From assembly GCA_002869205.1 (NCBI GenBank), contig PKTJ01000066.1, forward strand, positions 187 through 64,186: a DNA stretch of 64,000 nucleotides, written 5' to 3'. A program made the translations under genes and the position numbers. Under the pieces are notes generated by a model, which was given only the letters and a program-made list of their open reading frames with translations, was not told where the DNA came from and ran no database searches. Each line of letters starts with the position of its first letter. Within the stretch, counting starts at the first letter, position 1. This DNA comes from Candidatus Parcubacteria bacterium. GTDB taxonomy: Bacteria; Patescibacteriota; Patescibacteriia; Magasanikbacterales; UBA922. Shown piece by piece: positions 5,201 through 64,000 of this stretch.

Positions 5201-5968
5201 TTAATTATTTTGTATCCATCCGGTAATCTTTGTCGCCACATTTCTCGGTGCTAGTCTATTTGCAAACGCAAGAAGTTTGTTTCTAAATCCTGGTATCACT
5301 ACACGTTTGTTTTTTATCAGTCCTCGATATCCAACATAGGCGACTTCGTCGGCATTCATAACCTTCATTGTTTTGGGAAAGCGTAGTTCGGCAGCTTTTT
5401 CAAAACCAGTCCGAGTAGGGCCAGGACACAGTGTAGTGACACTCACGCCGGTATTTTTTAATTCTTCTCCAAGAGCTTCTGAGAAATGAAGTACAAATGC
5501 TTTACTTGCATAATATACTGCCATGCCAGGACCTGGTTGGAATGCTGCGGTTGAGGCGATGTTTAAAACTTTTCCACTTTTTTTAGATATCATGTCTGGT
5601 AAGAAAAGTTTTGTAAGTTCTGTCAGTGCAGAGATATTTATTTTGATCATGTCGAGTTCTTTTGCTAGATTTGTTTCTGTAAATTTTCCATATAATCCAA
5701 ACCCAGCATTATTCACTAGTATGTCTATAGTAATATTGTTTTCTTTTATCTCAGCATACAGTTTTTGAGGTGCGTCATCGTCAGTAAGGTCGTGGGTAAA
5801 TACATGGGTTTGAATATCGTGTGTACTCGAAAGTTCTTTTGCAATTGTATCTAGTTTTTCTTTATTACGTGCCACCAAAACGATATTGTGATTGTTTTGT
5901 GCAAAACGTTTACATAGCTCATATCCTATACCACTTGATGCGCCAGTGATGAGTACTGTTTTTTGCAT
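5201..5968 (-). CDS. short-chain dehydrogenase/reductase (SDR) family oxidoreductase
   Basis: TGASSGIG cofactor motif, NNAG, YxxxK (YYASKAF). Confidence 0.85.
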   Translation of the reverse strand: MQKTVLITGASSGIGYELCKRFAQNNHNIVLVARNKEKLDTIAKELSSTHDIQTHVFTHDLTDDDAPQKLYAEIKENNITIDILVNNAGFGLYGKFTETNLAKELDMIKINISALTELTKLFLPDMISKKSGKVLNIASTAAFQPGPGMAVYYASKAFVLHFSEALGEELKNTGVSVTTLCPGPTRTGFEKAAELRFPKTMKVMNADEVAYVGYRGLIKNKRVVIPGFRNKLLAFANRLAPRNVATKITGWIQNN

Positions 5969-5978
5969 AATATATCTA

Positions 5979-6632
5979 TTAGATTTCTATGTCTTTGAGA
6001 GATTCTGACAAGAAAATAGTATCAAAATTTCCATTAAAAAATTCTTTTGGATGAAGTGCGCGAGTTACCATGAGGAGGTTTTTTTCAATAACATTTTCAG
6101 CTTTCTTGTGATTTGCGAGTCCTGTGTTGAATCCTGCTTGATGGTATGCATCGTTCACAAGTTGTGAACAAAAAAATTGTTGTTGTTTTGATGCAAAAAA
6201 GAAATCAAAAGGTTTGCCAATTTGTTTTCGTGCATAGCGCACAGTTTTCTTTATTATTGTTTTTTTGTGTTTTTTGAGACGTGGTCTGAGAATAGCGAGC
6301 GTATCATATTCTGAAAAGAAATTTCTAAATTTTTCTCTTACAACACCATCTGAAACTGCATGTATGACACGTCCGCCACCGGTATAGATACATGCATGCG
6401 TGACAGGACCGCGTATGAATAAGCCACTTGCCCTTCTGTGGTTTCCGACCAAGAGCATGTCTCCTTTTTGGATTATTTTTAGTGCATTTTTATAATCTTG
6501 TGGAGTAAGATTATTTTTTCGCCACGTAACTTTTGTAACCCCAATCAAAAAAATAATATTTCCAAATATTTTTTTGAATACTGAAGCATTCTCTTCAAAA
6601 TTTTTTATGAGATGATATCTATAGGATTTCAT
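5979..6632 (-). CDS. YiiX/YaeF-like permuted papain-fold (NlpC/P60-related) putative amidase
   Basis: FFCSQLV cysteine motif and HAV/HACIY histidines; family assignment made from memory of motifs only. Confidence 0.45.
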   Translation of the reverse strand: MKSYRYHLIKNFEENASVFKKIFGNIIFLIGVTKVTWRKNNLTPQDYKNALKIIQKGDMLLVGNHRRASGLFIRGPVTHACIYTGGGRVIHAVSDGVVREKFRNFFSEYDTLAILRPRLKKHKKTIIKKTVRYARKQIGKPFDFFFASKQQQFFCSQLVNDAYHQAGFNTGLANHKKAENVIEKNLLMVTRALHPKEFFNGNFDTIFLSESLKDIEI

Positions 6633-7597: not shown

Positions 7598-8164
7598 TTA
7601 GAGTTTTACTTCGATATTCTCACGTTCAGTTGCATCTTCAATTTCGAAGAATACAAATTTCTCAAATCGTTTAAACATTCCTGCAATAACATTGTTTGGG
7701 AATGATTCAATTTTGATATTGAAATCACGTACATTGCCGTTGTAAAATCTACGTGCTGCCATGATTTTGTTTTCAGTATCAGAAAGTTCGTCCATGAGCT
7801 GCATAACATTTTGATTTGCTTTCAAATCTGGATATGCTTCCATAGCTACTTTCAAATCACGCATCATTGAGTTGATTTGTGTTTCTGATTTTGCAAGACC
7901 TTCTGTGTCACCAGCTTCTTGTGCTTTCATAGCATCAGCACGAGATTTGGTAATGTTTTCGAGTAGTTCACGCTCGTGTTTCATGTATCCTTTCACACTA
8001 TTGACCAAATTTGGAATGAGGTCGTGACGACGCTTGAGTTGTACATCAATATCACTCCAAGATTCTTTCGTGCGATTTTGGAGTTTGATAAGTACGTTGT
8101 AGACACCAATAATCCAAAAGAGGACAACGGCGAGGATAATAAGGATCGCGAATAATACTGGCAT
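7598..8164 (-). CDS. lemA: LemA family membrane protein
   Basis: N-terminal TM helix followed by the conserved LemA core (KESWSDIDVQLKRRHDLIPNLV...RRFYNG). Confidence 0.85.
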   Translation of the reverse strand: MPVLFAILIILAVVLFWIIGVYNVLIKLQNRTKESWSDIDVQLKRRHDLIPNLVNSVKGYMKHERELLENITKSRADAMKAQEAGDTEGLAKSETQINSMMRDLKVAMEAYPDLKANQNVMQLMDELSDTENKIMAARRFYNGNVRDFNIKIESFPNNVIAGMFKRFEKFVFFEIEDATERENIEVKL

Positions 8165-13720: not shown

Positions 13721-13797
13721 TTTGGTGATGTAATAAATTGTGGTATAATACTTTCACCTTTTAAACTTTTTACTTTATAAACTAACTTGCCTGTCAT

Positions 13798-14148
13798 ATG
13801 TTTGAAACAAGTAAAGATCTACTCTATGTAGTCTTATCACTTTCAATACTCTGGTTTACTGTATTTCTGTGTTGGCTTTTATACCAAGCAGCACGAGCTT
13901 TGCGTAATGCCAATAAGATTATTGAGACGCTTACACAAAAACTCGAACTTATCACTGATGCAGTAGAATTTATCCGTGCGAAGGTCGATAATATGTCGAG
14001 TCACATGGGTGCGGTAAGTGGTGTTGCATCAAGTCTGGTAAATAAATTTGTTTTGGGGAAGATATCAGATAAGCTTGATGAGAAGATGGGTGAAAGGAAG
14101 GCTAAAAAAACACCCAAGAGGAAAACGACCAAGAAAAAGAAAAAATAA
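13798..14148 (+). CDS. hypothetical small membrane protein with lysine-rich tail
   Basis: One TM helix, C-terminal KKTPKRKTTKKKKK. Confidence 0.4.
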   Translation: MFETSKDLLYVVLSLSILWFTVFLCWLLYQAARALRNANKIIETLTQKLELITDAVEFIRAKVDNMSSHMGAVSGVASSLVNKFVLGKISDKLDEKMGERKAKKTPKRKTTKKKKK

Positions 14149-14156
14149 TACTAATA

Positions 14157-14186
14157 AACCCCGCTAACGGCGGGGTTATTTTTTTG
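14157..14186 (+). terminator. rho-independent terminator
   Basis: AACCCCGC-taac-GGCGGGGTT hairpin followed by a T7 run. Confidence 0.7.
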
Positions 14187-14813
14187 CATATGCTTACCAG
14201 TTTGAAATTTTATAGTTTTTTCAACAAAGAAATAAAAATTATAAAAAAGAAAGATCTATCAGGGTCTATAAAAGATGTGGTCATGCAGATAGACAGCAGT
14301 GGCTCTGCTGAGGGCTGTGTTTTTCGTCCCACACCAGATGTAAGCAAAGTCATGACTGTAGTTATGGGTTTGTTTTTTATCATGTTTAGTATACTTGTGT
14401 TTCAAGGGTTGTCTTTCAAGGGTATGTTTACTGCAGAGTTATGGTGGTCTTTTCCTGCTGTCTTTTTTGTATTTTTTATTTTATTTTATTATAGTTTTTT
14501 TATTTATTGGATTGGTCCTGTGTATGTGAAAAAAAATATAGATAATTATTTTATTTATATTGGTAAGGAGGGGATTATACGTAAAGAATCAGGTAGGGTT
14601 GCGTTGGTGCCCTGGGAGATTATCACGGGAGTAAGCGTAGTCTTTGGCGTACGTGGTGGAGGTAATTATCTCGAGCTTGAAATAAAAGGACATCAGGTGT
14701 GGACACCCAAGCTTGTGCGAGGTGCAAATGAATCTACTTTGTTTGCCGACTGGGTGGAATATAGCGCACAAGACATGAGAGCGATGAAAGATATAATCCA
14801 AAAATTTTTGTAA
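14184..14813 (+). CDS. hypothetical membrane protein (true start probably an internal Met near 14283)
   Basis: ORF with two predicted TM helices; no known motif. Confidence 0.4.
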   Translation: MHMLTSLKFYSFFNKEIKIIKKKDLSGSIKDVVMQIDSSGSAEGCVFRPTPDVSKVMTVVMGLFFIMFSILVFQGLSFKGMFTAELWWSFPAVFFVFFILFYYSFFIYWIGPVYVKKNIDNYFIYIGKEGIIRKESGRVALVPWEIITGVSVVFGVRGGGNYLELEIKGHQVWTPKLVRGANESTLFADWVEYSAQDMRAMKDIIQKFL

Positions 14814-19958: not shown

Positions 19959-20034
19959 TGGAGGCGCCGTCAAGAAACGACGCCTGTCGGGGAGGGGAAC
20001 GCCCCGCCGCCCGAAGGCGGCGGGAGTAGAGCGT

Positions 20035-21078
20035 TCAGCGAGTTGTGCGGATCGAGGTGTCCCAGTGGTGGTGGTAGATGATGTGACCGAGGTCTGTGAG
20101 CCACGAGACGACACGGATCTTGCCCGACTTGACGAAGGGGTTCAAGAACTGTCGATTCACGAGCGGGACCGTGTCTGCGACGTAGAGGCGATCGAGCGGC
20201 GAGTGATCGAGCTGCAGGTTCTCCACCGCGTCACCACACAGAATGGCGTGCGTAACGATTGCCCAGAATTCGTGGATCTCGGCACGTTCTCGGACGGTGT
20301 TAGCTGTCCTCAGATTCGTGCTGACTGTCGCCGCTTCATCGTCCACAGACAGAACCAGTGCACCTTCGAGTTCATCGACATCTCGATAGATGTCTTTGAT
20401 CTCGACGTCGCGGCTGTTTCCACGACGTTTGTCACCAAACGTCGTGAAGATGTCACAGTCGAGCTCGTCGGCCACGTTCGTGACAGCTTCCTCATAGCGC
20501 TTCTTGGCGCCGTTGTCTGGGTAGTGTACGACGATCTTGTCGTGAGTTTGCAGCGCTTCTTCGAGCGCCTGCTTGAATACGCGCTTGAACATACTCACTT
20601 CGGTGATGAGACCAGGGTCACCGGCCATCACAACCTGCGAAGCGTGGAGATCGACGGAGATGATTCTGTCGAGTCTGCCTTGCGCGGCCGTCTTCATCAG
20701 CGAGACGATGAGGGGTGGAAGAGCGAACTCGTCGTCAGCTTCGTCTCTGTCGGATCGCGAGAGCGGGAAGTAGGCGGTGATGACGGTGATTCGGGCGGCT
20801 CTTCTGCCTGCCACGTGGTTGAGCAAGAAGAATAGGTTCACGAGCATGTCGGGGGTGCCAGGGCCACTGGTCAAGATCACGCAGTCGTGACCGCCGATGT
20901 GCTTCTTCTTCAGCTTGATGAAGGGTTCTTTGCTGCTGCGCCGACCGAAGATCGGAGACGCGATGTCGACAGGCGTCTCTTTCCTTTCGATCTGCTCTTT
21001 GAGAAGGGTGGCGATGTCTTCGAATCCGGGCATGGGAACGAGCGTGAGCGCGCCGTGCTGGCTGTGTCTGTCTTTCAT
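20035..21078 (-). CDS. divergent ribose-phosphate pyrophosphokinase (PRPP synthetase) family protein, second copy
   Basis: Aligns along its whole length to Prs (HDCVILTSG..RITVITAYFPLSRSDRD..DLHASQ..KRRGNSRDVE..SVDDEAATVST). Signature loops are altered: GYARQDRK becomes PLSRSDRD and DTGGT becomes EAATVST. GAGGG ribosome-binding site 8 nt before the ATG. Confidence 0.7.
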   Translation of the reverse strand: MKDRHSQHGALTLVPMPGFEDIATLLKEQIERKETPVDIASPIFGRRSSKEPFIKLKKKHIGGHDCVILTSGPGTPDMLVNLFFLLNHVAGRRAARITVITAYFPLSRSDRDEADDEFALPPLIVSLMKTAAQGRLDRIISVDLHASQVVMAGDPGLITEVSMFKRVFKQALEEALQTHDKIVVHYPDNGAKKRYEEAVTNVADELDCDIFTTFGDKRRGNSRDVEIKDIYRDVDELEGALVLSVDDEAATVSTNLRTANTVRERAEIHEFWAIVTHAILCGDAVENLQLDHSPLDRLYVADTVPLVNRQFLNPFVKSGKIRVVSWLTDLGHIIYHHHWDTSIRTTR

Positions 21079-21158
21079 AACGAAACCCTCGTAATTAGAT
21101 CAAGAAAACGACCTCCCCGGCCGTCTCCTCGATGTGTGAAATGAGCAAACATGTCACC

Positions 21159-21188
21159 ATAATAATTGTTTTGAGTTGTCATGTCAAC
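21159..21188 (-). promoter_or_regulatory. sigma70-like promoter for the prs-like gene (TTGACA-17-TATTAT)
   Basis: Minus-strand -35 at 21183-21188 and -10 at 21159-21164, between the udk terminator and the prs-like ribosome-binding site. Confidence 0.55.
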
Positions 21189-21202
21189 CATAAAAAAAAC
21201 GA

Positions 21203-21233
21203 ACACCCCGAGGCCGAAGCCACCGGGGTTTTA
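21203..21233 (-). terminator. rho-independent terminator downstream of udk
   Basis: Minus strand AAAACCCCGGTGGC-ttcg-GCCTCGGGGTGTT followed by T8. Confidence 0.65.
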
Positions 21234-21239
21234 GTTCGC

Positions 21240-21863
21240 TCAGGATGGGTGGAATCCGTTGAGCATCTGTTCGAGTCCTGCCTGAATGAACAGGCGTGCG
21301 ATCTCGTTGTTCCCGCCGTGTGGCACGATCAGGTTCGCGTGTCTGCGGGTCGGGTGACAGAATTCGTCGTGCATGGGTGCGACAGTGCCTTCCCATTGCT
21401 CGAGGATACCTTCGAGTTTGCGTCCTCGTTCCAGAACGTCTCGTTTGATACGACGCGCGAGACGTGTGTCTCCGGGCGTGTCGACGTAGATCTTGATCTT
21501 GGCGAGGCTTACCAATTCAGGTACAGCGAGCGCGAGTATTCCTTCGGCGATGATGAACGTTTTTGGGTCCACCTGGACACGCTCAGGTTCACGCGAATGC
21601 GTGTTGTAGTCCCAGCGCGGGGTCTGGACCGATACACCATCGACGAGCTCGCGAACGTGTGACACCATTAGGATGTTGTCGAAAGACCCTGGGTGGTCGA
21701 AGTTGCCGTTCTGGACGTAGGGAGACTCGGGGTCGTAATAGAAGTCGTGGCAGATTCGACAGCACTTGTCATCGCCGAGCATTCGGATGATTTCACGCGC
21801 GAGCGTTGTCTTACCAGAACCAGTGCCACCAGCGACGATGATCACGACAGGCGTGTTTTCCAT
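21240..21863 (-). CDS. udk: uridine/cytidine kinase
   Basis: P-loop GGTGSGKTT, NFDHPGSFD, FIIAEGIL, YVDTPGDTRLARRIKRDVLERGR, ANLIVPHGGNN; near colinear with E. coli Udk. Start placed at MENTPVV, which has GGAGG 9 nt upstream. Confidence 0.85.
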   Translation of the reverse strand: MENTPVVIIVAGGTGSGKTTLAREIIRMLGDDKCCRICHDFYYDPESPYVQNGNFDHPGSFDNILMVSHVRELVDGVSVQTPRWDYNTHSREPERVQVDPKTFIIAEGILALAVPELVSLAKIKIYVDTPGDTRLARRIKRDVLERGRKLEGILEQWEGTVAPMHDEFCHPTRRHANLIVPHGGNNEIARLFIQAGLEQMLNGFHPS

Positions 21864-21959
21864 CTTGAGCTTCCTCCAATTTGCAACAAAGCAGGCCATC
21901 GGCCTGCTCCTTTGTTGTATTTCAGAAATATTGTAACGCTACTTTTGTAGTTTGTCAAA

Positions 21960-22225: not shown

Positions 22226-22317
22226 GAGTTTATAAAGTTTAAAAGTTTAAAAAGTATACAAACTAACTATATGTAAAATACTTTACAAACTTTATAACTT
22301 TAGTAACTTTCGAACTC
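22226..22317. repeat. AAAGTT-motif inverted-repeat element (MITE-like), overlaps the 3' end of prs
   Basis: Left arm GAGTTTATAAAGTTTAAAAGTTTAAAAAG and right arm CTTTACAAACTTTATAACTTTAGTAACTTTCGAACTC are imperfect inverted copies; related elements at 53854-53931 and 54097-54183. Confidence 0.5.
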
Positions 22318-23250
22318 ATTAATAGATTTTACACTTTCATTTTTATGGATTTTTGAAATAATTTCAGCAAATCGTTTGCTCACTGACACTATTTCCAAAT
22401 CTCGTAGGTTGTGATGGTCACTTGGAATTGTGTCAGTAGTAATGAATTTGGTGATAGGGGAGTTGTTTAGTTTTTCACTTGCGCCTACACCCAAATTCGC
22501 GTGTATGAAACATGCATCTACACTCACTGCTCCTGCAGAATTGAGGAGAAATTCAGCATCTTCAATCAATGTTCCACCACTAAGTGTTTCGTCATCAATG
22601 ATAAGACATTTTTTATTTTGTACATCACCAATAACACCTTTGATTTTTACTTTTTCATCATTACCAATTCTACGTTTATCCATCATAGCAACAGGTAAGT
22701 CGAGACTGTCGGCATACGATTCCATCATTTTTGCTGCGCCGCTGTCTCCAGCTACGAGAACATAATTAGATAAATCCCAATTCTGTTTTAGGTGTTTGAT
22801 AATATCTGGTGCCGCAATGAGATGATCACACGGTACGCCGAAGAAGCCATGGAGTTGTGCCGAGTGCATCTCCATGATGAGGACACGGTTTGCACCAGCT
22901 GTCTGTAGCATGTCGGCTATGAGTTTGGCAGTAATACAAATTCGTGGTTGATCTTTTTTGTCTGATCGTGCATATGAAAAGTAGGGGAGAACTGCGGTAA
23001 TTCTTTTTGCAGAAGCATCTCTGAGTGTTCTGATATACATGAGAAGTTCCATGATATGGATGTGTACCGGTGTTGTGTGAGTTTGTATAACAAACACATC
23101 ATCTCCTCGCACAGCCTCATCAACAGTCACAAATTTATCTCCATTACTAAATGTTATAGAAGATGTTTGTGTCTCTTCTATATCCAAGTGTTCACAGATT
23201 TTCTTTACAAATCCTTTGTGGCTGCTACCACCAATAATTTTGAGGGACAT
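22300..23250 (-). CDS. prs: ribose-phosphate pyrophosphokinase (host copy)
   Basis: Canonical motifs DDVFVIQTHT, RITAVLPYFSYARSDKK, MEMHSAQ, IIDDETLSGGTL; AT-rich codon usage. Confidence 0.9.
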   Translation of the reverse strand: MSLKIIGGSSHKGFVKKICEHLDIEETQTSSITFSNGDKFVTVDEAVRGDDVFVIQTHTTPVHIHIMELLMYIRTLRDASAKRITAVLPYFSYARSDKKDQPRICITAKLIADMLQTAGANRVLIMEMHSAQLHGFFGVPCDHLIAAPDIIKHLKQNWDLSNYVLVAGDSGAAKMMESYADSLDLPVAMMDKRRIGNDEKVKIKGVIGDVQNKKCLIIDDETLSGGTLIEDAEFLLNSAGAVSVDACFIHANLGVGASEKLNNSPITKFITTDTIPSDHHNLRDLEIVSVSKRFAEIISKIHKNESVKSINEFESY

Positions 23251-24453: not shown

Positions 24454-24502
24454 GCGTTACTTGCTTTGAGTTAAAAATATAAATACTTAGATCATTACCA
24501 TA

Positions 24503-24549
24503 CACCCCTCCCTAACCCTCCCCTAATAGGGGAGGGAATGGGTGGGGTT
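24503..24549. repeat. GC-rich nested-palindrome intergenic repeat, copy 2 (inverted orientation)
   Basis: Its reverse complement matches copy 3 nearly base for base. Confidence 0.6.
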
Positions 24550-27485: not shown

Positions 27486-27495
27486 ATAATATGCT

Positions 27496-31135: not shown

Positions 31136-31164
31136 TTGACATATATGTGTTTATATAGTACTAT
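31136..31164 (+). promoter_or_regulatory. sigma70-like promoter upstream of rplJ (TTGACA-17-TACTAT)
   Basis: Read directly from the sequence. Confidence 0.5.
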
Positions 31165-31189
31165 ATTCACATCCATAGACAGCAGGTGC

Positions 31190-31295
31190 CATAAGGCTTA
31201 ATTTCCTGCCGAGGTAACTCTTAGCTAATTTTAGCTAAAATAAGGTCGAAGAGTACCGAAAAGTCTGTGGTTAAAAACCACAGTTTTATTTTTTC
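31190..31295 (+). promoter_or_regulatory. rplJ (L10) leader with intrinsic terminator/attenuator
   Basis: Structured leader ending in CTGTGG-ttaaaaa-CCACAG plus a T-run 6 nt before the rplJ ATG; analogous to L10-leader autoregulatory elements. Confidence 0.45.
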
Positions 31296-31300
31296 AAGTT

Positions 31301-40513: not shown

Positions 40514-40672
40514 TTTATTAACCTGGGTGGCGTGTAATTCGCCAACTGGACGTGAGCCCAGTACCGTATGGTACAGGGTATAGCCGTCGATCCACATTTA
40601 GTGGAATGATTCCGTGCAACTCGGAAGCCAACCGTATAGTCGGGACCCTGACGTTAGTCGGGGTATCACATT
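40514..40672 (+). ncRNA. candidate structured RNA / cis-regulatory leader (GC-rich, multi-hairpin) between mreB and the EamA transporter
   Basis: About 52% GC in an AT-rich genome, with at least five local hairpins (TGGCG-tgtaatt-CGCCA, GTACC-gtat-GGTAC, CCAC-attta-GTGG, GGAA-tga-TTCC, CTGGG...CCCAG). The track ORFs on the minus strand here look spurious. Identity unknown. Confidence 0.35.
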
Positions 40673-45335: not shown

Positions 45336-45383
45336 CTAGGACTAGTCGTAAAATTATTTGTTTGGATTTTGCTTTTTGTAACT

Positions 45384-45430
45384 AACCCCACCCGTTCCCT
45401 CCCCTAATAGGGGAGGGTCAGGGAGGGGTG
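45384..45430. repeat. GC-rich nested-palindrome intergenic repeat, copy 3
   Basis: AACCCCACCCGTTCCCTCCCCTAATAGGGGAGGGTCAGGGAGGGGTG. Confidence 0.6.
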
Positions 45431-55756: not shown

Positions 55757-55864
55757 TATACTAACTTCGCTCTGTTTGGACTCATTATCTTCGTCTTTTA
55801 ACAAAGCTAATGAATCGGGCGGGAGCGAAGGTAGCATGGTTGTGAGTAGCAGTCGCGCCGTCCG

Positions 55865-56575
55865 CTAGTTCACGGTGTGGTCGTCGCGCCACCTGGCACA
55901 GATGTCGTCCGGGTACTTCCACGTACCGTCGTCTCGGGTGTCGAGACAGTGGATCATCGGATCTTCCTGTGAGGTAGAGATGTTGTAGGATGTGCCATCT
56001 GGTGTGATGATGATGACCGTCGAGGTGATCGGCTTGTCACCTTCATGTTTCCAGTCAGTCGGTCCACGATACGGGCGAGGGGAGATGTCGAGGTGGGTGT
56101 TTTCATCGCAGTTCTTACCCTCGATGTAGAAGCAGCGACCGTATTCCGGGATGGGATAGATGCCGTGAAACTCTATGTGACAGACCGCGTGCGTGATGCA
56201 CTCGTGAGGAAGTTCCTCACCGAGACAGTCACTCACGGTGGCGCACTCGTAGTTGTCGTAGTCTGGCGCGGGGAGCTCCGACGCTTCGATCGAATCGACG
56301 TAGATGAACGAGTCGACTTCGATTTCACCCACGAGAACCCACTCGTAGATGGATCCGTCCGGCGTCCAGAAGGGGCCGTCGAGCCAGATGACTTCATCAC
56401 GCTTGGGTTGTGCCGCCATCGTGGCGGCCTTGTCCAGCGTCTTCATCTTATCCGTCGAGTCCTGCTGCTCGGCTTCCAGGGACGCGCCGAATCCGATCGC
56501 GATCGACGCGAACAGGACGAGGGTCATCATAGGGACGTTGACGATGGTTCTGATGCTGGCCGCTCGGTTGCTCAT
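55865..56575 (-). CDS. secreted/membrane-anchored cysteine-rich hypothetical protein (~236 aa)
   Basis: Signal/TM segment MMTLVLFASIAIGFGASLEA and 10 Cys. Start placed at MSNRAAS, which has AGGAG 7 nt upstream. The plus-strand ORFs 56045-56710 and 56349-56807 are Arg-rich antisense artefacts. Confidence 0.6.
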   Translation of the reverse strand: MSNRAASIRTIVNVPMMTLVLFASIAIGFGASLEAEQQDSTDKMKTLDKAATMAAQPKRDEVIWLDGPFWTPDGSIYEWVLVGEIEVDSFIYVDSIEASELPAPDYDNYECATVSDCLGEELPHECITHAVCHIEFHGIYPIPEYGRCFYIEGKNCDENTHLDISPRPYRGPTDWKHEGDKPITSTVIIITPDGTSYNISTSQEDPMIHCLDTRDDGTWKYPDDICARWRDDHTVN

Positions 56576-56626
56576 TTTCGAGCTCCTCATTGTGTCCGTG
56601 GGCTTTTTCGAGCCCTGTTGCGATTC

Positions 56627-56818
56627 TTATCTTCCGAGACTGCAGGTGCCACAGTGCTTGCCGCAGTATCCTCCGCCCTGGCAAATGCCACGAGGTTCTT
56701 TGGGAGGTAGTGGCGGAAGGTCCTTGAACCTTTCTTCCATCGGAAGCAGCGGAGCTTTCTCCTGGTCTCCTTCCGGAACTGCGATTTCTTCTGGGTCTGT
56801 GGTATGACGAGAGGTCAT
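56627..56818 (-). CDS. small Cys-rich protein (63 aa from MTSRHTT; C-terminal CQGGGYCGKHCGTCSLGR)
   Basis: AGAGGAG 6 nt before the internal ATG; four Cys in a C-x5-C-x3-C-x2-C arrangement; sits 50 bp upstream of the secreted protein gene. Confidence 0.5.
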   Translation of the reverse strand: MTSRHTTDPEEIAVPEGDQEKAPLLPMEERFKDLPPLPPKEPRGICQGGGYCGKHCGTCSLGR

Positions 56819-56963
56819 CGGTGACTCCTCTATGCTGGAGAGTACGTTAATCATTTTTTACCAAAAAAACGGTATTTTGTCAATGTTATGTAAGAATAGT
56901 GGGACGTTTTGATTCCCGATTATTTTATGGTATACTTATGACCACTATTTCTAACCTTATTTT

Positions 56964-59900
56964 ATGGTTGCAAAGGGGGCGAAAAAATCTCGAAAAGACA
57001 AACATATTTTGTGGTTCAAAGAAATCGGCATCAAGGATGTTCCACTTGTTGGTGGAAAGAATGCAAGTCTTGGAGAGATGTATAACACGGTTACAAAAAA
57101 AGGCATCAATGTCCCAAATGGTTTTGCAGTTACCGCTGCGGCATATTGGGATTTTTTGGATAAAACAAATCTGAAAGCAAAGATAAAAAAAGAATTAAAA
57201 GATCTCGATGTAACAAATGTTCGTGAGCTTGCACGTGTAGGAAAAAAAGTTCGCAACATGGTTCTTGCAGCAAAATTTCCTGCACATTTGGAAAAGGAAG
57301 TGGAAAAAGCATATGCAGAATTATCTAAACTAGAAAAAACAAAAAATATCGCAGTTGCTGTGCGATCTAGTGCAACTGCAGAAGATTTGCCTGATGCGAG
57401 TTTTGCTGGTCAGCAAGAAACATATTTGAATATAAAAGGCGTCAAGTCACTTCAGACTGCAGTAAAAAAGTGTGTCGCGTCGCTCTTTACGAATCGCGCC
57501 ATCTCATATCGTGAGACAAAAGGATTTGACCATCTCACTGTTGCCCTGTCAGTTACGGTTCAGGTGATGGTTCGTTCAGATGTGGGTTCTTCTGGAGTAC
57601 TCTTTACACTCGATACAGAATCAGGTTTTCCTGGAGTGGTACTCATCAATTCATCCTACGGTCTTGGAGAATACGTGGTAAAGGGTCGGGTAACACCAGA
57701 TCAATTTTATGTTTTCAAAGAAGGAATAAAACAAGGCAAAAAATCTATTATTAGTAAAATTATTGGTTCAAAAGAAGTAAAACTTGTATATGGAGCCACT
57801 AGTGGTACGAAGCAACTTGCAGTAAAGAAAGCTGATCAAAATAAATTTTCTATTACACCAGATGAGGTTATTAAATTGACGAAATGGGGAATGCAGATTG
57901 AAGAGCACTATAAACGACCTCAAGATATTGAATGGGCAAAAGATGGTAAGACAGGAAAGCTCTATATTGTCCAAGCTCGACCTGAGACAGTAAAATCTCA
58001 TACAAATAAATCGGTGATTGAGACATATATTCTCAAGAAAAAGGGTAAACAAGCACTTACCGGTATTTCAGTAGGACAAAAGATTGGTGCAGGAAAAGTT
58101 CGTGTGATTGACAATCCAAAGCAGATGAAACAGTTCAAAAAAGGCGAAGTGCTCGTGACTCGTATCACTGATCCAGACTGGGAACCAATCATGCGTATTG
58201 CAAGTGCTATTGTCACAGAGCAGGGTGGTAAGACAAGTCATGCTGCTATTGTAAGTCGTGAGCTTGGTGTGCCATGTGTTGTTGGTGCGCGTGCTGCACG
58301 CAAGACTTTGAAAACAGGGAAACAGGTTACCGTGAGTTGTGCTGAGGGCGATGAGGGTATTATTTATAATGGTATTCTTCCGTTTGAAGTCAAGAAAACT
58401 GAAATTAAAAAAGTAGAAAAAACAAAAACAAAAATCATGATGAATGTTGGTGATCCTGACAATGCATTTAGTTTGTCATTTTTACCAAATAATGGCGTAG
58501 GTCTGGCACGTGAAGAATTTATTTTTTCCAATTTTATCCGTATTCATCCACTTGCGCTCGTTCACTACAATAAGCTCAAGGATAAGAAAGCCAAGAAAAA
58601 GATTGCTGAGATGACAAAAGGGTATAAGAAAAAGACTGACTATGCAGTAGATAAGCTTGCGGAAGGTATTGCACGAATTGCAACAGCATTTTATCCAAAT
58701 GAAGTAATTGTTCGCTTGTCTGACTTCAAAACAAATGAATATGCAACACTTCTTGGTGGAAAAGAATTTGAACCAAAAGAAGAAAACCCAATGATTGGAT
58801 GGCGTGGGGCAAGTCGTTATTATTCAAAAGAATATAAGCCAGGATTTAAGATTGAGTGTGAAGCACTCAAGAAAGTTCGTAATGAATGGGGTCTGACCAA
58901 TGTGATTACTATGGTGCCATTTTGTCGTACACCAGAAGAAGGAAAAAACGTGCTCAAGACTATGGCAGACTTTGGGCTCAAACAAGGTGAGAATGACCTC
59001 AAAGTATACGTAATGTGTGAAATCCCAAGTAATGTTATCTTGGCAGAAGAGTTTGCAAAATTATTTGACGGATTTAGTATTGGGTCAAATGATTTGACTC
59101 AGCTTACTTTGGGTGTTGATCGTGATTCATCTCTAGTGAGTCATGTGTATAGTGAAAAAAATAAGGCAGTAACTAAATTGATTCGTGATGTGATTCGTGT
59201 TGCCCACAAACATAAGCGAAAAGTAGGTATTTGTGGACAAGCTCCGAGTGATTATCCTGAATTTGCAGAGTTTTTGGTACGTGAAGGTATTGATAGTATT
59301 TCTCTTAATCCTGATACCGTTGTTTCTACGCGTGAACGTATTGCCTATGTAGAAAAAACTCTAGGAAAGAAAGGTAAGAAGACACACAAATCATATCTTG
59401 GTCTTGTTGCCGGTCTTGCTGTCCTTTCTGCTAGTCTGATGATGGTGGGTGGTGGCTGTGATTCAATTCGAGGTGATTTACCAACCCCTCATACCGACCT
59501 CATCGATATGAGCCCTGCAGAGATTCGTGAACGTGTAGAGAAAAAATTAAATGAAACACAGGAATTAGAAAAACAAAAACCAACACAAGAATTAAAAGTA
59601 AATAGTTTTGAACATTTTTCAATCAAATATCCACAAGAATGGTCTGTAGAAAATTGGAATGGTGGTGTCACGATGAGAAATAATGAGACAGGGGAGTATG
59701 TGAGTTTGTTTGATCAGCTTGTTGGTCACCCTGTGGCAGAAGGTGTGAAGGAGATTGTTACAGTTGGTGGAAAAGATGCAACGAGGTATGTAGAAGATTA
59801 TAAGGGTGACGATACAGAGTCAGCATCATTTACCGTAGTTGAGATTGATATGGAAGGATATGTTTTTGAAATCAACAGCAATGCAGATAATTTTGATGAT

Positions 59901-60098
59901 ATCTTAGACACGTTGGTATTTGTCTCAGAAGATTCGCCAGACAGACCACTAACACACTGGGATGTGAGAGAGAAGCGTGTGTGTATACAGATGATCACCT
60001 ATGCTCGCCAAGGAAGTGAGGGTATGTGTGAAGTATTTCCTACACCGTGTGACGTACCTGATGGGTGGAATGTCTGTGACGCAACAGACCTAGAATAA
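56964..60098 (+). CDS. ppsA: phosphoenolpyruvate synthase (pyruvate, water dikinase) with ~240-aa C-terminal extension
   Basis: VGGKNASLGEM start and PEP-utilizing His domain (GGKTSHAAIVSRELGVPCVVG). The canonical end near SLNPDTVV is followed in-frame by KKGKKTHKS-YLGLVAGLAVLSASLMMVGGGC (a lipoprotein-like signal peptide) and a Cys-containing domain. Confidence 0.85.
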   Translation: MVAKGAKKSRKDKHILWFKEIGIKDVPLVGGKNASLGEMYNTVTKKGINVPNGFAVTAAAYWDFLDKTNLKAKIKKELKDLDVTNVRELARVGKKVRNMVLAAKFPAHLEKEVEKAYAELSKLEKTKNIAVAVRSSATAEDLPDASFAGQQETYLNIKGVKSLQTAVKKCVASLFTNRAISYRETKGFDHLTVALSVTVQVMVRSDVGSSGVLFTLDTESGFPGVVLINSSYGLGEYVVKGRVTPDQFYVFKEGIKQGKKSIISKIIGSKEVKLVYGATSGTKQLAVKKADQNKFSITPDEVIKLTKWGMQIEEHYKRPQDIEWAKDGKTGKLYIVQARPETVKSHTNKSVIETYILKKKGKQALTGISVGQKIGAGKVRVIDNPKQMKQFKKGEVLVTRITDPDWEPIMRIASAIVTEQGGKTSHAAIVSRELGVPCVVGARAARKTLKTGKQVTVSCAEGDEGIIYNGILPFEVKKTEIKKVEKTKTKIMMNVGDPDNAFSLSFLPNNGVGLAREEFIFSNFIRIHPLALVHYNKLKDKKAKKKIAEMTKGYKKKTDYAVDKLAEGIARIATAFYPNEVIVRLSDFKTNEYATLLGGKEFEPKEENPMIGWRGASRYYSKEYKPGFKIECEALKKVRNEWGLTNVITMVPFCRTPEEGKNVLKTMADFGLKQGENDLKVYVMCEIPSNVILAEEFAKLFDGFSIGSNDLTQLTLGVDRDSSLVSHVYSEKNKAVTKLIRDVIRVAHKHKRKVGICGQAPSDYPEFAEFLVREGIDSISLNPDTVVSTRERIAYVEKTLGKKGKKTHKSYLGLVAGLAVLSASLMMVGGGCDSIRGDLPTPHTDLIDMSPAEIRERVEKKLNETQELEKQKPTQELKVNSFEHFSIKYPQEWSVENWNGGVTMRNNETGEYVSLFDQLVGHPVAEGVKEIVTVGGKDATRYVEDYKGDDTESASFTVVEIDMEGYVFEINSNADNFDDILDTLVFVSEDSPDRPLTHWDVREKRVCIQMITYARQGSEGMCEVFPTPCDVPDGWNVCDATDLE

Positions 60099-60135: not shown

Positions 60136-61173
60136 ATGCATATGATGTTATCTCAAAAAGAAAAATTATTTTTAATACCTCTTGGGCTTGTTGCTATTGT
60201 GGTAGCTGCGGTTGGTGGGTATGTTATTTCTGAAGTGGGTTTTTCTGGAGGTGGTGAGGAAAGACAAATAGTTTCATATAGTGAAGAATCACCTGATCAA
60301 GATGAAAATAAGATCGATACTAAAGTGGAGGATCAGATGATTTCGTGTGTCATGGTAGACAAAAGTTTGGATATTGTTCCAGACGAAGGTCTGGGTGTGT
60401 ATTACAAGACACGCTTGTTTCCTGTAGAGACAAATGTTAGGCATGATATTTTTGTAAATGATTCAGCAATTATTGCGTTTAAACATTTTAATGGAGGAGG
60501 GGACCCCTATAATTATGATGAGGAAAAGTGGAGTAAGTTTGCTGGACAAGGACCTTCTTATTTTGTCGAAATGCTAGATTTTTCTGCACCTAGGAATGTT
60601 TCTGTTATCCCAACTTTTTCTATTCCTCATGAGGTTATTACCAATGACAATTTTATGGGTAATATCACAAATGTGAGTTATGGTGATAGTTGGTTTATTT
60701 TCTCTCGGGGGTTTGCAGCGTTTACTGGTTCGGTGGTGGATCAGAGATTGACAGAGGTTGCCTATGATCGTAAGTTTCGAGAGATTGTTATTCCAGAAGA
60801 ATACACTGCTGATCCAGAATTTCGTTCTGGTCCGGTTCATGGTTTTACTGTTAATAATAATACGTCAACCATAGGAGACATGCTTGGTCTTTTGCGTGAT
60901 GATACCATTGTGTTTTCTTTGCAAAAAAATACTAGTACATATATTGGTTATGAAATAAAAAATGACTCATGGATAGAAGTTTCTGTAGATGAGATATATG
61001 ATGTTGATATGACAGTCTATGAAGAGGTTGGTGGACCACGTATATACAAACCCCTTGATCTTATCAAGGAGTATGGTTGTTTTGCACTTCCAACACCGCG
61101 TGGTGATATGGTTTTTACGTCGCATGAGCTTGGTAATCTGAATGACGAGATGGATGTGTGGTTTGCTCGATAG
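60136..61173 (+). CDS. hypothetical membrane-anchored protein (345 aa)
   Basis: N-terminal TM helix; no known motif. Confidence 0.45.
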   Translation: MHMMLSQKEKLFLIPLGLVAIVVAAVGGYVISEVGFSGGGEERQIVSYSEESPDQDENKIDTKVEDQMISCVMVDKSLDIVPDEGLGVYYKTRLFPVETNVRHDIFVNDSAIIAFKHFNGGGDPYNYDEEKWSKFAGQGPSYFVEMLDFSAPRNVSVIPTFSIPHEVITNDNFMGNITNVSYGDSWFIFSRGFAAFTGSVVDQRLTEVAYDRKFREIVIPEEYTADPEFRSGPVHGFTVNNNTSTIGDMLGLLRDDTIVFSLQKNTSTYIGYEIKNDSWIEVSVDEIYDVDMTVYEEVGGPRIYKPLDLIKEYGCFALPTPRGDMVFTSHELGNLNDEMDVWFAR

Positions 61174-61292
61174 GAATATAACATAATATCAAAAAATGAT
61201 CCGGAGAGGGTCATTTTTTATTTGCTTTTTATTTTTGGTCGTGTTAGGTTTTATATATTGTCAACAATGTTCTCCACCAGATGAGGTCTGAT

Positions 61293-62045
61293 ATGAGCAT
61301 CAGGTTTACGTGTGAAGTCGAGACGCCTGACGGTGTCGTGCGATTCGTTCTTGATTCGTGGCGTTCTTCGTCGGAGGATGATCGAACCATCGAGCCGGAG
61401 TTCTATGTGGATTACTGTGCGGATGGTCAGATCCCGCAGGGTCCTCATCACGAGGTCGAGATCCTCGAGCCGGCGAAGATCGGTGGTCACGAGCACGAAG
61501 AAGTCATCCACTATCACATCAATCGTGGTGGTGGGCAGTTCGTGTGCTGGACCGGTTCTCTGCCGTCGCTCAGTGCGGTCAGTACCATGCTTCGCGTGTG
61601 GTGTGCTGGGACTGCCTTCACCATGGCGACTGGTAAGGACTTCACGGTCGAGTTCGAGGGTGATTTCGATCAGATCGTACGCGGCCTTTCTGAGGCCGGA
61701 TACAAGGTAGTTCTGTGTCGTAACGACCTGCAGCAGTTCGAAATTAGTATGACGTTTTCTCATAACGTGACATGGTCTGCTTTCAGCTCACCGCTGGTCA
61801 AGGAGATCGTGGCGCGGCTGCCGCGTGAGCAAGAAGACGTCTTGCGTGCAGTAGTAGAACACTTGCGTTCTCGCACACCACACGAGAACGGCGCGATCGA
61901 AGACAGTCTCATGGTTGCCTGGGGTGTGTTCTGTCAGAGGCTTCGGGGTAATTTGGACCTCAGCGAGCCTATCGCGACGCCATTGGCGATCGGTGATCTG
62001 AGCGGGTGGGTTCTGTGGGCTGAAGAAAGCGCCAACATGTGCTGA
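61293..62045 (+). CDS. hypothetical cytoplasmic protein (250 aa)
   Basis: ORF with GC-rich codon usage; start placed at MSIRFT, which has GAGGT upstream. Confidence 0.5.
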   Translation: MSIRFTCEVETPDGVVRFVLDSWRSSSEDDRTIEPEFYVDYCADGQIPQGPHHEVEILEPAKIGGHEHEEVIHYHINRGGGQFVCWTGSLPSLSAVSTMLRVWCAGTAFTMATGKDFTVEFEGDFDQIVRGLSEAGYKVVLCRNDLQQFEISMTFSHNVTWSAFSSPLVKEIVARLPREQEDVLRAVVEHLRSRTPHENGAIEDSLMVAWGVFCQRLRGNLDLSEPIATPLAIGDLSGWVLWAEESANMC

Positions 62046-62118
62046 AGGGAGGGTGTTGTGGCACGTTCACCACCAAGGGGAAGCCCTGACTGATCGCACC
62101 GAACAGTCGGGGACAGTC

Positions 62119-62190
62119 AAAAACAGTCTAGTTTATAGACTGTTTTTTTGTGTTTTTACCCTTGACATAAGGGTTTTTTTGTGATACAAC
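62119..62190 (+). promoter_or_regulatory. terminator hairpin (AAAAACAGTCTA-gttta-TAGACTGTTTTT) followed by sigma70-like promoter TTGACA-17-TACAAC
   Basis: Perfect palindrome 62119-62150; -35 at 62162-62167, -10 at 62185-62190; AGGAG at 62227-62231 before the ATG at 62239. Confidence 0.6.
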
Positions 62191-62238
62191 TCGAGCAGGT
62201 TTGAGAAAGCGAAACCAGGAAACAACAGGAGTGACATC

Positions 62239-63060
62239 ATGTCGCATAAGAATAGTTCGCGTTCGTTCATGCAGAACCTCGGTACGTACCGTGTGCAGCG
62301 TAGAATCTTCATTTTTTCGACACTTATCTCTCTGATCGTGATGTGTTCACTGCGTTCGGATAGCAGCGACGACCAAGAACAAGAGGTCGCTGTGTCAGCC
62401 ACTCCTGTCATCGTGCCGACGCAGTCCGGTCGTCCGGCGATTCCTGGACCGCTCGAGATTCCGAGCGATGAATTCAGGAAGTGGTCGGCCAAAGAGCTTG
62501 ATCGAATCGTGCGTACACACCCGAGTGAATTGATCTCTCGAGATCTGCTCGGACATGTCGAGGCACGTCCTCGCCGAGTTCATCCGAGTTTCGCTCTCGT
62601 CGAGACACCGGTACCACGCATGGCACAAGCGTTTTGCGATCTTCTGCCAAGCAGTGGAACTCGCGTGGGCTTCACCATCTTTCCGAGACTGTTCTTTGCA
62701 GACAATGTCTCGGATGTGGATCGTTACACCGCGCTTTACCATGAGTATGACCATATCGCCGAGATGCTGGCAGACCCATCCCTGTGTCCGTTTTTCTCAG
62801 AGACATGGGTCGGCACGTCTCTCGAGGTCCGTAGGTTTTTTGACCTCGAGATGCAGGCCTACAGCGCGGCATGTGAATTCGAGATCGTACATGAGCTTGT
62901 GGACCGGGCGCACCAGTCGGGCTGTCGCATATATCGCGATCAGGGTCCGGAGACTTATCTGAGGCTCACCTCTACACGTCTCGAAGCTATGCCGATCTTC
63001 GCGCCGTACCGGAACAAGCTTCTGGGATGGGCGCGTGAGTACATCGAACATAATCGTTAG
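62239..63060 (+). CDS. membrane-anchored HExxH-motif protein (putative zinc metallopeptidase-like)
   Basis: N-terminal hydrophobic segment IFIFSTLISLIVMC and a YHEYDH (HExxH) motif; otherwise unknown. Confidence 0.5.
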   Translation: MSHKNSSRSFMQNLGTYRVQRRIFIFSTLISLIVMCSLRSDSSDDQEQEVAVSATPVIVPTQSGRPAIPGPLEIPSDEFRKWSAKELDRIVRTHPSELISRDLLGHVEARPRRVHPSFALVETPVPRMAQAFCDLLPSSGTRVGFTIFPRLFFADNVSDVDRYTALYHEYDHIAEMLADPSLCPFFSETWVGTSLEVRRFFDLEMQAYSAACEFEIVHELVDRAHQSGCRIYRDQGPETYLRLTSTRLEAMPIFAPYRNKLLGWAREYIEHNR

Positions 63061-63147
63061 GCTGAGGAGGTGCCTCAAGAACCCGACGCCCAAAGCGTCT
63101 GGCTGGTCCCGCAGGGATCATTCAGCGAGCGTGCATCGGGATCAGTC

Positions 63148-63209
63148 AAAAACAGCTTTTTCTAAAAGGCTGTTTTTGTTTTGACCCACTCACAAAAACA
63201 TGTTAAAAT
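63148..63209 (+). promoter_or_regulatory. second copy of the terminator-promoter spacer module (hairpin, then TTGACC-17-TAAAAT)
   Basis: CAGTCAAAAACAGC...GCTGTTTTTGTTTTGACCC parallels the module at 62110-62167. Confidence 0.55.
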
Positions 63210-63350
63210 AATCCACCTGTGATAAGGCGCGTGAGCGTTTTGTCACGGTTTTTTGTAATGTTGAGACAGAGGAGTGGGTTTGATAGCTTTGTTTGTGTCG
63301 GGATTGGCCCGTCGCTGGCAAGGTGTCTAACTCACTTTTCGAGGTAGTCC

Positions 63351-63974
63351 ATGCGCGTTTGTAGCTTGTTCTCGATCCTGGTTCTCAGTGTCTCTTTCTC
63401 CTTCCTCGCTGCGTGCAACGATGATTCGTCTGGCGGCAGCGGTACGGTGGAGGAGACTGAGTACATCTCCTGCAATCCGGCTATGGGAGGTGACTGCCCG
63501 GATGGATCCTCGTGCGCTCGTCTCGAAGGCGATGCGCACACGCTCTCGGTATGCGTCCAGGACGAGCACGTGCCCTGTGTCGCCGACTTCGAGTGCGATG
63601 GCGGGCAGTGTATCTCCGTCCAGGGTCTTCAGCAGACCATCTGCACTCAGTCCTTGGCTGAAGATATCGGCTGTCCGTTCTACGGCTTTGATGAGCTCGA
63701 GTACGAGGTGAAGGTCGGGAACGAGACGTTCTACTTGCTCACCGAGTATGTCTCGGAATCGTGTGAGCTGTCCATGAGGCTGAAGTCCGACCTTAGCAAC
63801 ATGGCCTGGCATTACGTCTTGTACGTCGATGAGGATGACAGCCTCCGTGGCGTCGTCGGCAATGGCGCCCAGGTCGAAGTCCTTCACCTCAGCTTGGGCT
63901 GGATCCAGGTTCGTGAGACCGATCCGGACGGCGGCGCCGACCCGATCGAATACACCTTCTTCCTCGTACCGTAG
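63351..63974 (+). CDS. cysteine-rich lipoprotein, hypothetical
   Basis: Signal peptide with canonical lipobox FLAAC and about 14 Cys. The minus-strand ORF 63327-63887 is judged antisense. Confidence 0.55.
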   Translation: MRVCSLFSILVLSVSFSFLAACNDDSSGGSGTVEETEYISCNPAMGGDCPDGSSCARLEGDAHTLSVCVQDEHVPCVADFECDGGQCISVQGLQQTICTQSLAEDIGCPFYGFDELEYEVKVGNETFYLLTEYVSESCELSMRLKSDLSNMAWHYVLYVDEDDSLRGVVGNGAQVEVLHLSLGWIQVRETDPDGGADPIEYTFFLVP

Positions 63975-64000
63975 CCCAGCTTCGGTGGCTGAGGATCTTA

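Follow-up and report, generated by a model that had tools for sequence, protein, structure and literature searches.

Putative insulated gene cassettes with a common 3′ hairpin–terminator module in a GC-rich island of a low-GC Parcubacteria chromosome

Island D and its genomic setting

The stretch of DNA analysed here (the window; 64 kb, contig PKTJ01000066.1 of a "Candidatus Parcubacteria bacterium", positions 187 to 64,186) is a segment of a bacterial chromosome with a GC content of 37%, and at its right end lies a GC-rich island of about 2.8 kb, named island D, which carries three genes, D1, D2 and D3. Island D is probably, if by no means certainly, a group of horizontally acquired, insulated single-gene cassettes in a low-GC Parcubacteria chromosome. 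This reading rests on the composition of the island and on a conserved module of two hairpins, which follows D1 and D2 and recurs after unrelated GC-rich genes at other loci.

The window contains the housekeeping genes clpB, pheST, dnaE, nadA, rplJL, pyk and pps, and the protein encoded by D2, which has an HExxH motif, is identical to a hypothetical protein in the "Candidatus Parcubacteria bacterium" metagenome-assembled genome (MAG) of NCBI. Composition profiles show short islands of 52–60% GC on the low-GC background at 19960–21900, at 55800–56850 and from 61262 to the window end; the last of these, island D, has a host gene for a membrane protein on one side and a patatin gene on the other, and the GC steps at its edges are sharp. 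The left edge is formed by the intrinsic terminator of the upstream low-GC host gene (60136–61173), found by the terminator scan on the plus strand at 61191–61219; no module is present there, and GC climbs from 0.38 to more than 0.55 just past this terminator. The three GC-rich open reading frames (ORFs) recognised in an earlier preliminary description of this DNA, all on the plus strand at 61293–62045 (D1), 62239–63060 (D2) and 63351–63974 (D3), hold in both coordinates and composition, with a GC content of 0.56, 0.54 and 0.59 and a GC content at third codon positions (GC3) of 0.64, 0.59 and 0.76, respectively, against 0.38–0.39 and 0.27–0.28 in the flanking host genes. The DNA composition of island D is foreign to the host.

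A Joint Genome Institute (JGI) contig, L001, agrees with the window without mismatch for 5087 nt and then runs on for another 10 kb (an L001 coordinate is the window coordinate minus 58913; the terminator at the left edge is at L001 2278–2306). The extension past base 64000 that had been recommended revealed the end of the island, a hammerhead ribozyme candidate and a further module-bearing island, island E. The island does continue past the window end, as had been supposed, but barely, since GC falls to 0.38 around L001 5100–5250, some 50–100 nt past base 64000. Island D is present in contigs of the European Nucleotide Archive (ENA) assembly ERZ794998, JGI 3300007102 and Logan SRR5894287, with 0–5 mismatches over 13–20 kb; both junctions, with genes of host composition outside them, recur in the three assemblies. 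The island is thus real and is found in several assemblies.

The conserved 3′ module

According to the preliminary description, each of the three genes is preceded by a near-identical spacer. Two spacers, not three, share a module, and "near-identical" overstates the likeness: the three upstream regions align at a mean column identity of only 53%, and beyond a stretch of about 21 nt the spacers agree only in the terminator foot and the −35 box. The exact core common to the two spacers, RTCGGGRWCAGTCAAAAACAG, is 20–21 nt long; the only exact matches to a 20-nt core, TCGGGRWCAGTCAAAAACAG, in the 64-kb window are at 62107 and 63136, and chance alone would give about 0.13 matches even if three mismatches were allowed. 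The hairpin, T-run and TTGACM hexamer reported to follow the core were found in both module-bearing spacers. As to the promoters placed there, the one ahead of D3 (TTGACC-17-TAAAAT) was called by the promoter scan, but the −10 element ahead of D2 (TACAAC) is weak and was not called.

Module copy 1, after D1 (62083–62163, plus strand), consists of hairpin 1 (CCCTGACTG / CAGTCGGGG, with GCACC in the loop), the sequence ACAGTC and, at 62119–62147, a terminator of the A-tract/stem/U-tract type with a T-run; its terminator hairpin, called by the terminator scan, has 12 pairs, and the RNA fold of the copy is −44 kcal/mol (z = −4.5). Copy 2, after D2 (63080–63194, plus strand), has the hairpin-1 arms CCCGACGC / GCATCGGG with an enlarged loop, followed by TCAGTC, a terminator at 63148–63178 and TTTTGACCCACTCAC (−49 kcal/mol, z = −3.6). 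The general order of the elements, over about 75–115 nt, is a stop codon (often followed by a GGAGG-like sequence), hairpin 1 with the stem CCCGAC/GTCGGG and often the loop GCACC, NN-CAGTC, AAAARCAG-variable stem-CTGTTTTT and GTTT(T)ACCCAC. The stable stem-loop directly before a U-run is the arrangement of an intrinsic terminator.

A covariance model, R1, was built from six module copies and scored on 215 kb of the window and related loci; the six copies scored 50.6–85.8 bits (copy 1, 77.5 bits; copy 2, 60.3 bits) and all other hairpins at most 27.6 bits. Helix 1 (CCCGAC/GTCGGG) is invariant in sequence in all six copies and shows no covariation, whereas helix 2 shows covariation in its inner four pairs (TCTA/TAGA, TTCT/AGGA and CTTT/AAGG, all in register; the pairs CACC/GGTG of the copy in contig L065 were read by eye and are out of register in the alignment). 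In total, 93.5% of the module cells are paired, versus 38–58% when the partners are slid.

The third copy in the host genome lies 1.7 kb past the window, after a fourth GC-rich gene. This gene, at L001 6198–6731, is the single, lipoprotein-like orphan gene of island E (L001 6150–6810, window-equivalent 65063–65723), with the promoter TTGACC-17-TAAGTT, and its module is complete, with G replacing A in the CAGTCAAAAGCAG core. Three copies are thus found within 5 kb of the host genome and none elsewhere in about 74 kb; all three fold at z-scores of −2.9 to −4.5. An exact-pattern scan of JGI metagenomes found the module in two contigs of another metagenome: in L056 (about 40% GC) it follows a DUF2103-like ORF of 52–58% GC, for which a homology search returned the query alone, and in L057 (33% GC) it follows a Zn-ribbon-like ORF of 65% GC. 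Each of these ORFs has its own TTGACA-type promoter. A diverged module is located after P0004, the closest homolog of D2 (about 33% identity), which lies in a three-cassette GC-rich island of L065, a 198-kb contig of about 42% GC; the tail of copy 2, ACCCAC-TCAC, also stands after the module of this homologous cassette. In each of these three Parcubacteria-like contigs, which represent two other metagenomes, the module belongs to a cassette of 52–65% GC within a host of 33–44% GC.

The modules of D1 and L057 are 90% identical over 48 nt and their ORFs are unrelated; therefore, the module is to be assigned to the 3′ end of the GC-rich cassettes and is common to different genes and genomes. It is the 3′ end of the cassette and not the 5′ side of the next gene, and it also follows the genes of single-gene islands. 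The earlier idea of a modular cassette array with insulating spacers is strengthened by the recurrence of the module after island E and in L056, L057 and L065.

No Rfam family corresponded to the module when the island, its spacers and the contigs L056, L057 and L065 were searched at permissive E-values, and the matches to RAGATH, PyrR and small RNA families were insignificant; a blastn comparison with the phage and plasmid collections gave no match to the module either. Among 185,579 species genomes, a collection that evidently excludes the source MAG, the exact pattern CAGTCAAAARCAG-N8-18-CTGTTTTT gave 53 scattered matches lacking an upstream GGG/TCGGG, which were set aside as chance terminators. 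Exact scans of IMG/VR were likewise judged to have returned chance matches: one of the hairpin-2 pattern without the upstream part of the core, two of the 20-nt core in AT-rich sequence without the hairpin, and one of hairpin 1 in a GC-rich primase coding region. A micro-ORF in the 3′ untranslated regions (UTRs), encoding a QSGTVKNS-like peptide, was considered and rejected, the conserved DNA being in different frames between copies.

The hammerhead candidate at the end of the island

D3 is not followed by the module. Its 3′ UTR, which begins at 63975–64000 on the plus strand and continues past the window, contains a GC hairpin at L001 5100–5134 (window-equivalent 64013–64047) and, directly after it, a candidate type III hammerhead (window-equivalent 64048–64102) with a full-length match to the Rfam model RF00008 (39.2 bits with E = 1.6e-7 when searched locally, and 34.5 bits with E = 1.2e-4 over 6.3 kb). 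The cmscan alignment shows a complete core (CUGAUGA, GAAA, the A15.1-U16.1 pair and U17); stems I, II and III have 6, 5 and 7 bp, with one G-U pair in stem III, stem III is open and there is no mispair beside the core. The minimum free energy fold gives the three-stem junction (z = −5.5). Cleavage is predicted after L001 5142, between window-equivalent 64055 and 64056. The region is closed by a bidirectional terminator (window-equivalent 64103–64150) common to the end of the island and the low-GC patatin gene on the minus strand.

Judged by the criteria that Perreault et al. 2011 (PMC3088659) set for accepting a hammerhead, this type III candidate from Parcubacteria is well formed. In bacteria, hammerheads lie beside one gene or a short run of genes in regions gained by horizontal transfer, typically near integrases or prophage genes (PMC3088659). 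No further ribozyme was found in the window or the related loci, and no paper linking hammerhead ribozymes to Patescibacteria was found in the literature searched.

The D2, D3 and D1 proteins

In the D2 protein (273 aa), an N-terminal transmembrane (TM) anchor is joined by an acidic linker to a zincin-like domain that is probably extracytoplasmic, in accordance with the TM anchor and YHEYDH motif noted earlier: the TM helix comprises residues 23–38, the motif HEYDH residues 168–172, and HExxH is invariant in all 11 remote homologs. A word-indexed protein search returned only D2 itself, and an exhaustive HMMER search revealed the 11 relatives, with identities of 23–34%. The N-terminal hydrophobic anchor is present in all family members, H168, E169 and H172 are invariant in 12/12 sequences, and the THP motif and E204 are also invariant across the family; E204 sits 32 residues past H172, on a helix of the AlphaFold 2 model, and may be the third zinc ligand. 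The model, made from the family alignment, is confident (predicted local distance difference test score, pLDDT, 83 for the whole model and more than 90 within the domain) and the domain has a zincin-like alpha/beta fold. A Foldseek search with this model found nothing significant; zincin-like and SprT-like proteins headed the viral fold search, not significantly. No Pfam or NCBIfam match was found for D2, while two of the 12 homologs match the putative metallopeptidase family DUF6782 (PF20573; best E = 7e-5). To the question raised earlier, whether the protein is ImmA/IrrE-like or M48/M56-like, the answer is neither, as 0/12 family members match those profiles. D2 represents a new, distant and small zincin-like family, set apart from M48, M56 and ImmA/IrrE, and it is probably an outward-facing, membrane-anchored metallopeptidase.

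Ahead of D2, the stretch 62158–62190 on the plus strand holds a small second terminator-like hairpin (ACCCTTGACATAAGGGT with a T-run), found by the terminator scan at L001 3245–3261, which contains the −35 element TTGACA (62162–62167) of a putative promoter; the −10 element TACAAC lies at 62185–62190. Within the same leader, positions 62173–62188 hold GTTTTTTTGTGATACA, and a near-identical 16-nt sequence, GTTTTTGTGTGATACA, is found in the 5′ part of the hammerhead (L001 5140–5155); this similarity may be a relic or chance. The leader was also considered as a decayed hammerhead and rejected as a functional ribozyme, having neither a CUGAUGA core nor an Rfam match.

D3 encodes a predicted lipoprotein of 207 aa with the lipobox FLAAC and Cys22. 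The signal peptide and lipobox proposed for it earlier stand, but the protein has 12 cysteines rather than about 14, two in the signal peptide and ten in the mature part. By inspection, its N-terminus, MRVCSLFSILVLSVSFSFLAAC, is that of a lipoprotein, with a positively charged n-region, a hydrophobic h-region (maximal hydrophobicity at residues 6–22) and a lipobox of the form [LVI][ASTG][GA]C. No sequence match was found in the family libraries or PDB, except a weak, sub-threshold match to Lustrin_cystein. The D3 promoter, TTGACC-17-TAAAAT with a TG extension, is located at 63181–63209 on the plus strand (promoter scan, 10/12 matches; L001 4268–4296). In the 5′ leader of about 140 nt, the scan also found a terminator-like hairpin of 14 pairs with a T-run (63217–63258, plus strand; called at L001 4304–4335); it matches no Rfam family and may be an attenuator or regulatory leader. 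The gene caller used with the ENA assembly picked long antisense ORFs at 12035–12712 (D3) and 13768–14388 (island E) of contig L058. GC3 of D3 is 0.76 on the plus strand versus 0.58 for the antisense ORF; therefore, the plus-strand ORF is the gene. The antisense calls in D3 and island E are an annotation error typical of GC-rich inserts, and GC3 supports the plus strand.

D1 (250 aa), recognised as an ORF and called as a gene by JGI, is a cytosolic orphan protein with no TM segment, signal peptide or hydrophobic segment. It has no match in Pfam, NCBIfam, PHROGs, PADLOC or PDB sequences, and a homology search over 5.8 billion proteins found D1 itself as the sole match. Its single-sequence AlphaFold 2 model (pLDDT 33.7) is unusable, being too poor for a fold search.

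None of the proteins matched well-known housekeeping families in the Pfam, NCBIfam and other library scans. The joint envelope-associated function that the preliminary description proposed for the genes is not upheld: they appear to be separate transcription units, the D2 homologs have unrelated neighbours and D1 has no hydrophobic segment. At five other loci, D2 homologs are found next to different housekeeping genes each time, with no relative of D1 or D3 adjacent; therefore, the trio is not a conserved system. No paralogy was detected among the island proteins (D1, D3, E, C1 and others tested). There is no evidence of one system, and the three proteins appear as unrelated accessory genes and not as one machine.

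Origin of the cassettes and alternative explanations

Genes of the D2 family have native composition in contigs of 52–54% GC, including an NCBI MAG labelled "Parcubacteria group bacterium", and they are GC-elevated inserts between different housekeeping genes in lower-GC hosts (the window, L065 and L077). This distribution suggests that low-GC Parcubacteria received the genes from relatives of higher GC content, in agreement with a published survey that reports most detected transfers in Patescibacteria as within-phylum events (PMC12455944). Terminator-like hairpins after D1 and D2 and promoter-like boxes before D2 and D3 indicate independent transcription units, so that the island would contain three single-gene units, those of D2 and D3 with sigma-70-like promoters. 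The module would stop transcription and insulate adjacent cassettes, and hairpin 1 would leave a hairpin-protected 3′ end on the mRNA. In D3, the GC hairpin and the hammerhead would take the place of the module, self-cleavage giving an equivalent hairpin-ended mRNA. The cassettes would most likely have come from GC-richer Parcubacteria relatives or their mobile elements, moving one gene at a time, and the common module would be the mark of a shared cassette format.

Several observations weigh against this reading. Termination, promoter use and ribozyme cleavage are predictions made from the sequence. The hammerhead candidate scores below the Rfam gathering threshold of 48.5 bits, and the D2 promoter, read from the sequence and not called by the scan, is weak, its −10 element lacking the final T. 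Ahead of D1, no consensus promoter was found and only the terminator of the host gene lies upstream. The other GC-rich islands of the window, at 19960–21900 and 55800–56850, have no module, nor have the GC-rich D2-homolog loci examined, and the genes may have gained the module once they had been transferred instead of bringing it along. The module is known from six copies, and the two scans of large collections used exact patterns only.

The module could instead be a recombination site of the integron attC or att type, and the GC-rich single-gene cassettes could have been captured and shuffled by a recombinase encoded elsewhere; islands D and E and those of L056, L057 and L065 would then be products of a new Parcubacteria cassette-mobilisation system. 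Helix 1 is conserved in sequence and not merely in structure (6/6), the module stands on unrelated ORFs across genomes, as the 90% identity of the D1 and L057 copies over 48 nt illustrates, and module-bearing cassettes cluster, with three in 5 kb. The island of L065 (3900–6830) adds to this: it opens with comM truncated directly after the PHHSASGIA motif, and its homologous cassette lies between 83-nt direct repeats (4794–4876 and 5905–5987; 26-nt identical core GGAATAGCACGTTCAATAGCGAGGTA) overlapping the truncated comM fragment, the second of which reads as a diverged comM fragment (PHHSTTGIA). By analogy, these repeats look like the tandem att sites of comM-targeting elements. On this view, the module would serve for recognition or crossover in an undescribed attC-like system of Parcubacteria or of the Candidate Phyla Radiation (CPR), one without a recognisable integron integrase that moves single GC-rich genes, together with their promoter and terminator, from genome to genome; the hammerhead-ended variant and the comM-fragment repeats would be further traces of the same machinery. 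We consider such a system unlikely, and the same holds for a recombination role of the module in general. Among the genes called over about 74 kb around island D, and over 5 kb on each side in L065, there was no integrase, transposase or reverse transcriptase, the module is composed of two short separate hairpins lacking RYYYAAC/GTTRRRY core sites, and D2 and D3 have recognisable promoters of their own. A search around island D and its cassettes found neither direct repeats nor a target-site duplication, and neither an empty site nor a circular junction was seen.

Somewhat less likely again is a decayed prophage or integrative-element remnant with moron-like genes, in which the hammerhead would be left over from phage transcript processing. 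Autonomous promoter-ORF-terminator units of deviant composition fit the classical definition of morons, the typical place of bacterial hammerheads is close to integrases and prophage genes (PMC3088659), and zincin- and SprT-like proteins topped the viral fold search, though not significantly. Nevertheless, none of the three proteins matched PHROGs, tblastn of D2 against 50,697 phage records gave nothing, the module is absent from the phage, plasmid and IMG/VR collections (the exact-pattern IMG/VR matches being judged chance) and there is no integrase or structural phage gene nearby. It is very unlikely that D1–D3 form one envelope-associated system, for example, a protease whose substrate or partner would be the lipoprotein, with a cytosolic protein for regulation or immunity. 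The genes are adjacent and co-oriented, D2 is membrane-anchored with an outward zincin domain and D3 is a lipoprotein, but each gene pair is separated by a terminator and a promoter, the five other D2-homolog loci have entirely different neighbours, none of them related to D1 or D3, the search of 5.8 billion proteins returned D1 alone, D3 has no match in the family libraries or PDB, and the island proteins are not paralogous. An assembly chimera or contaminant stretch, to which an abrupt GC switch in a MAG and the antisense ORFs taken by one gene caller in the GC-rich parts might point, is hardly credible given the same junctions in three assemblies of different accessions (0–5 mismatches over 13–20 kb), the genes of host composition on both flanks on one contig, and the AT-rich, host-style terminators and promoters inside the island.

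Comparison with known genetic systems

Like integron cassettes and their attC sites (e.g., Vibrio VCRs), the units of island D are short, mostly orphan, single-gene and co-oriented, with host-atypical composition and a conserved 3′ palindromic element common to unrelated ORFs. Unlike in integrons, there is no intI nearby, and no integrase or recombinase is found among the Pfam matches of the window and the adjoining 10 kb. An attC site is a single imperfect hairpin of 55–141 nt with R″ RYYYAAC and R′ GTTRRRY, whereas the module has two hairpins (CCCGAC/GTCGGG and AAAACAG/CTGTTTT), one of which is a classical intrinsic terminator, and no such R″/R′ pair is visible in it by sequence, no dedicated attC model having been run. 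Integron cassettes are mostly promoterless and driven by Pc, while those of island D are separated by a terminator and a −35/−10 box, and units of this type are located in small dispersed islands and not in one long array.

With phage morons, the cassettes share the autonomous promoter-gene-terminator organisation, the deviant composition and the insertion between resident genes; unlike morons, they are chromosomal, among housekeeping genes (pps, patatin, dnaE), without phage families, and their module is common to several loci and genomes. The hammerhead candidate resembles those of prophages and integrative regions (PMC3088659) in its canonical core, its position in the intergenic 3′ UTR of an acquired hypothetical gene and the expected transcript trimming, but it is a single type III copy, not a cluster, in Parcubacteria, with a sub-gathering score and no integrase nearby. 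Repetitive extragenic palindromic (REP) sequences and bacterial interspersed mosaic elements (BIMEs) are also GC-rich, sequence-conserved hairpins just past stop codons that can stabilise upstream mRNA and are common to unrelated genes; the module differs in following only GC-rich foreign cassettes (three in 74 kb and none after native genes), in being fused to a terminator and in the absence of any visible gene of the REP-associated tyrosine transposase type. As for the D2 protein, BlaR1/MecR1 (M56), HtpX/Ste24 (M48), minigluzincins and DUF6782 share with it the HExxH helix with a downstream Glu, the zincin-like fold and the N-terminal anchor, whereas D2 has no M48, M56 or ImmA/IrrE profile match, one TM helix instead of a polytopic sensor, and the invariant THP. 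The finding is best classed as insulated accessory cassettes akin to morons and to attC-like arrays, with the addition of a cross-genome module and a hammerhead.

Other features of the window and neighbouring contigs

The GC-rich island at 19960–21900 (minus strand, 52–63% GC) contains a phosphoribosyl pyrophosphate synthetase-like gene (20038–21078) and a uridine kinase gene (21243–21899), each with its own terminator and TTGACA promoter, and it adjoins the low-GC prs gene of the host (22300–23250). The island at 55800–56850 (minus strand) encodes a TM-anchored, Cys-rich orphan protein of 241 aa (55868–56590) and an ORF of about 64 aa (56628–56819), in which a Cys-rich, CxxxxxCxxxCxxC-like tail can be seen by eye; the best R1 match near this island scored 27.5 bits. 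The phosphoenolpyruvate (PEP) synthase gene (56964–60098, 1044 aa) encodes an extension of about 250 aa past the last PEP-utilising domain, including the hydrophobic segment LGLVAGLAVLSASLMMVGGG.

A family of intergenic palindromic repeats of about 45–90 nt with the core GGATTTCCAGATAATCCAGATTTACGGATATC is present at 27491, 31828, 37928, 46037 and 52010 and gave spurious matches to microRNA families of Rfam; it looks like a host element of the REP type or of the miniature inverted-repeat transposable element type, unrelated to the module. The GC-rich palindrome CCCTCCCCTA(A/G)TAGGGGAGGG, with conserved flanks, occurs in three intergenic copies (3682–3736, 24493–24547 and 45374–45428). A flavin mononucleotide riboswitch match at 40514–40661, upstream of the gene at 40673, scored 55.8 bits (E = 6e-10), below the gathering threshold of 66.2, and an L10 leader match of 72.8 bits is located at 31155–31299, upstream of rplJ. 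In L001, a structured stretch of about 50% GC at 7790–7957 (minus strand) adjoins tRNA-Asp (7958–8032), and both end in CCGGTCCGCAAAAATAAAA; ARAGORN made no call there, Rfam gave only a weak match to the ylbH leader, and the stretch could be a tRNA copy that is degenerate or carries an intron, or else a small RNA of another kind.

Significance

Bacteria of the CPR have tiny genomes and are thought to be episymbiotic, and the gain of surface and accessory genes in this group is poorly understood; the locus described here shows single genes of foreign composition in what appear to be ready-made insulated units, with a 3′ element that recurs in other genomes and metagenomes. The D2 family is a small new group of membrane-anchored zincin-like proteins, which could be surface effectors. 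If the module is only a terminator and stabiliser, it would define a portable format of expression cassette; if it is also a recombination handle, it would represent a new gene-cassette system in a major uncultured radiation.

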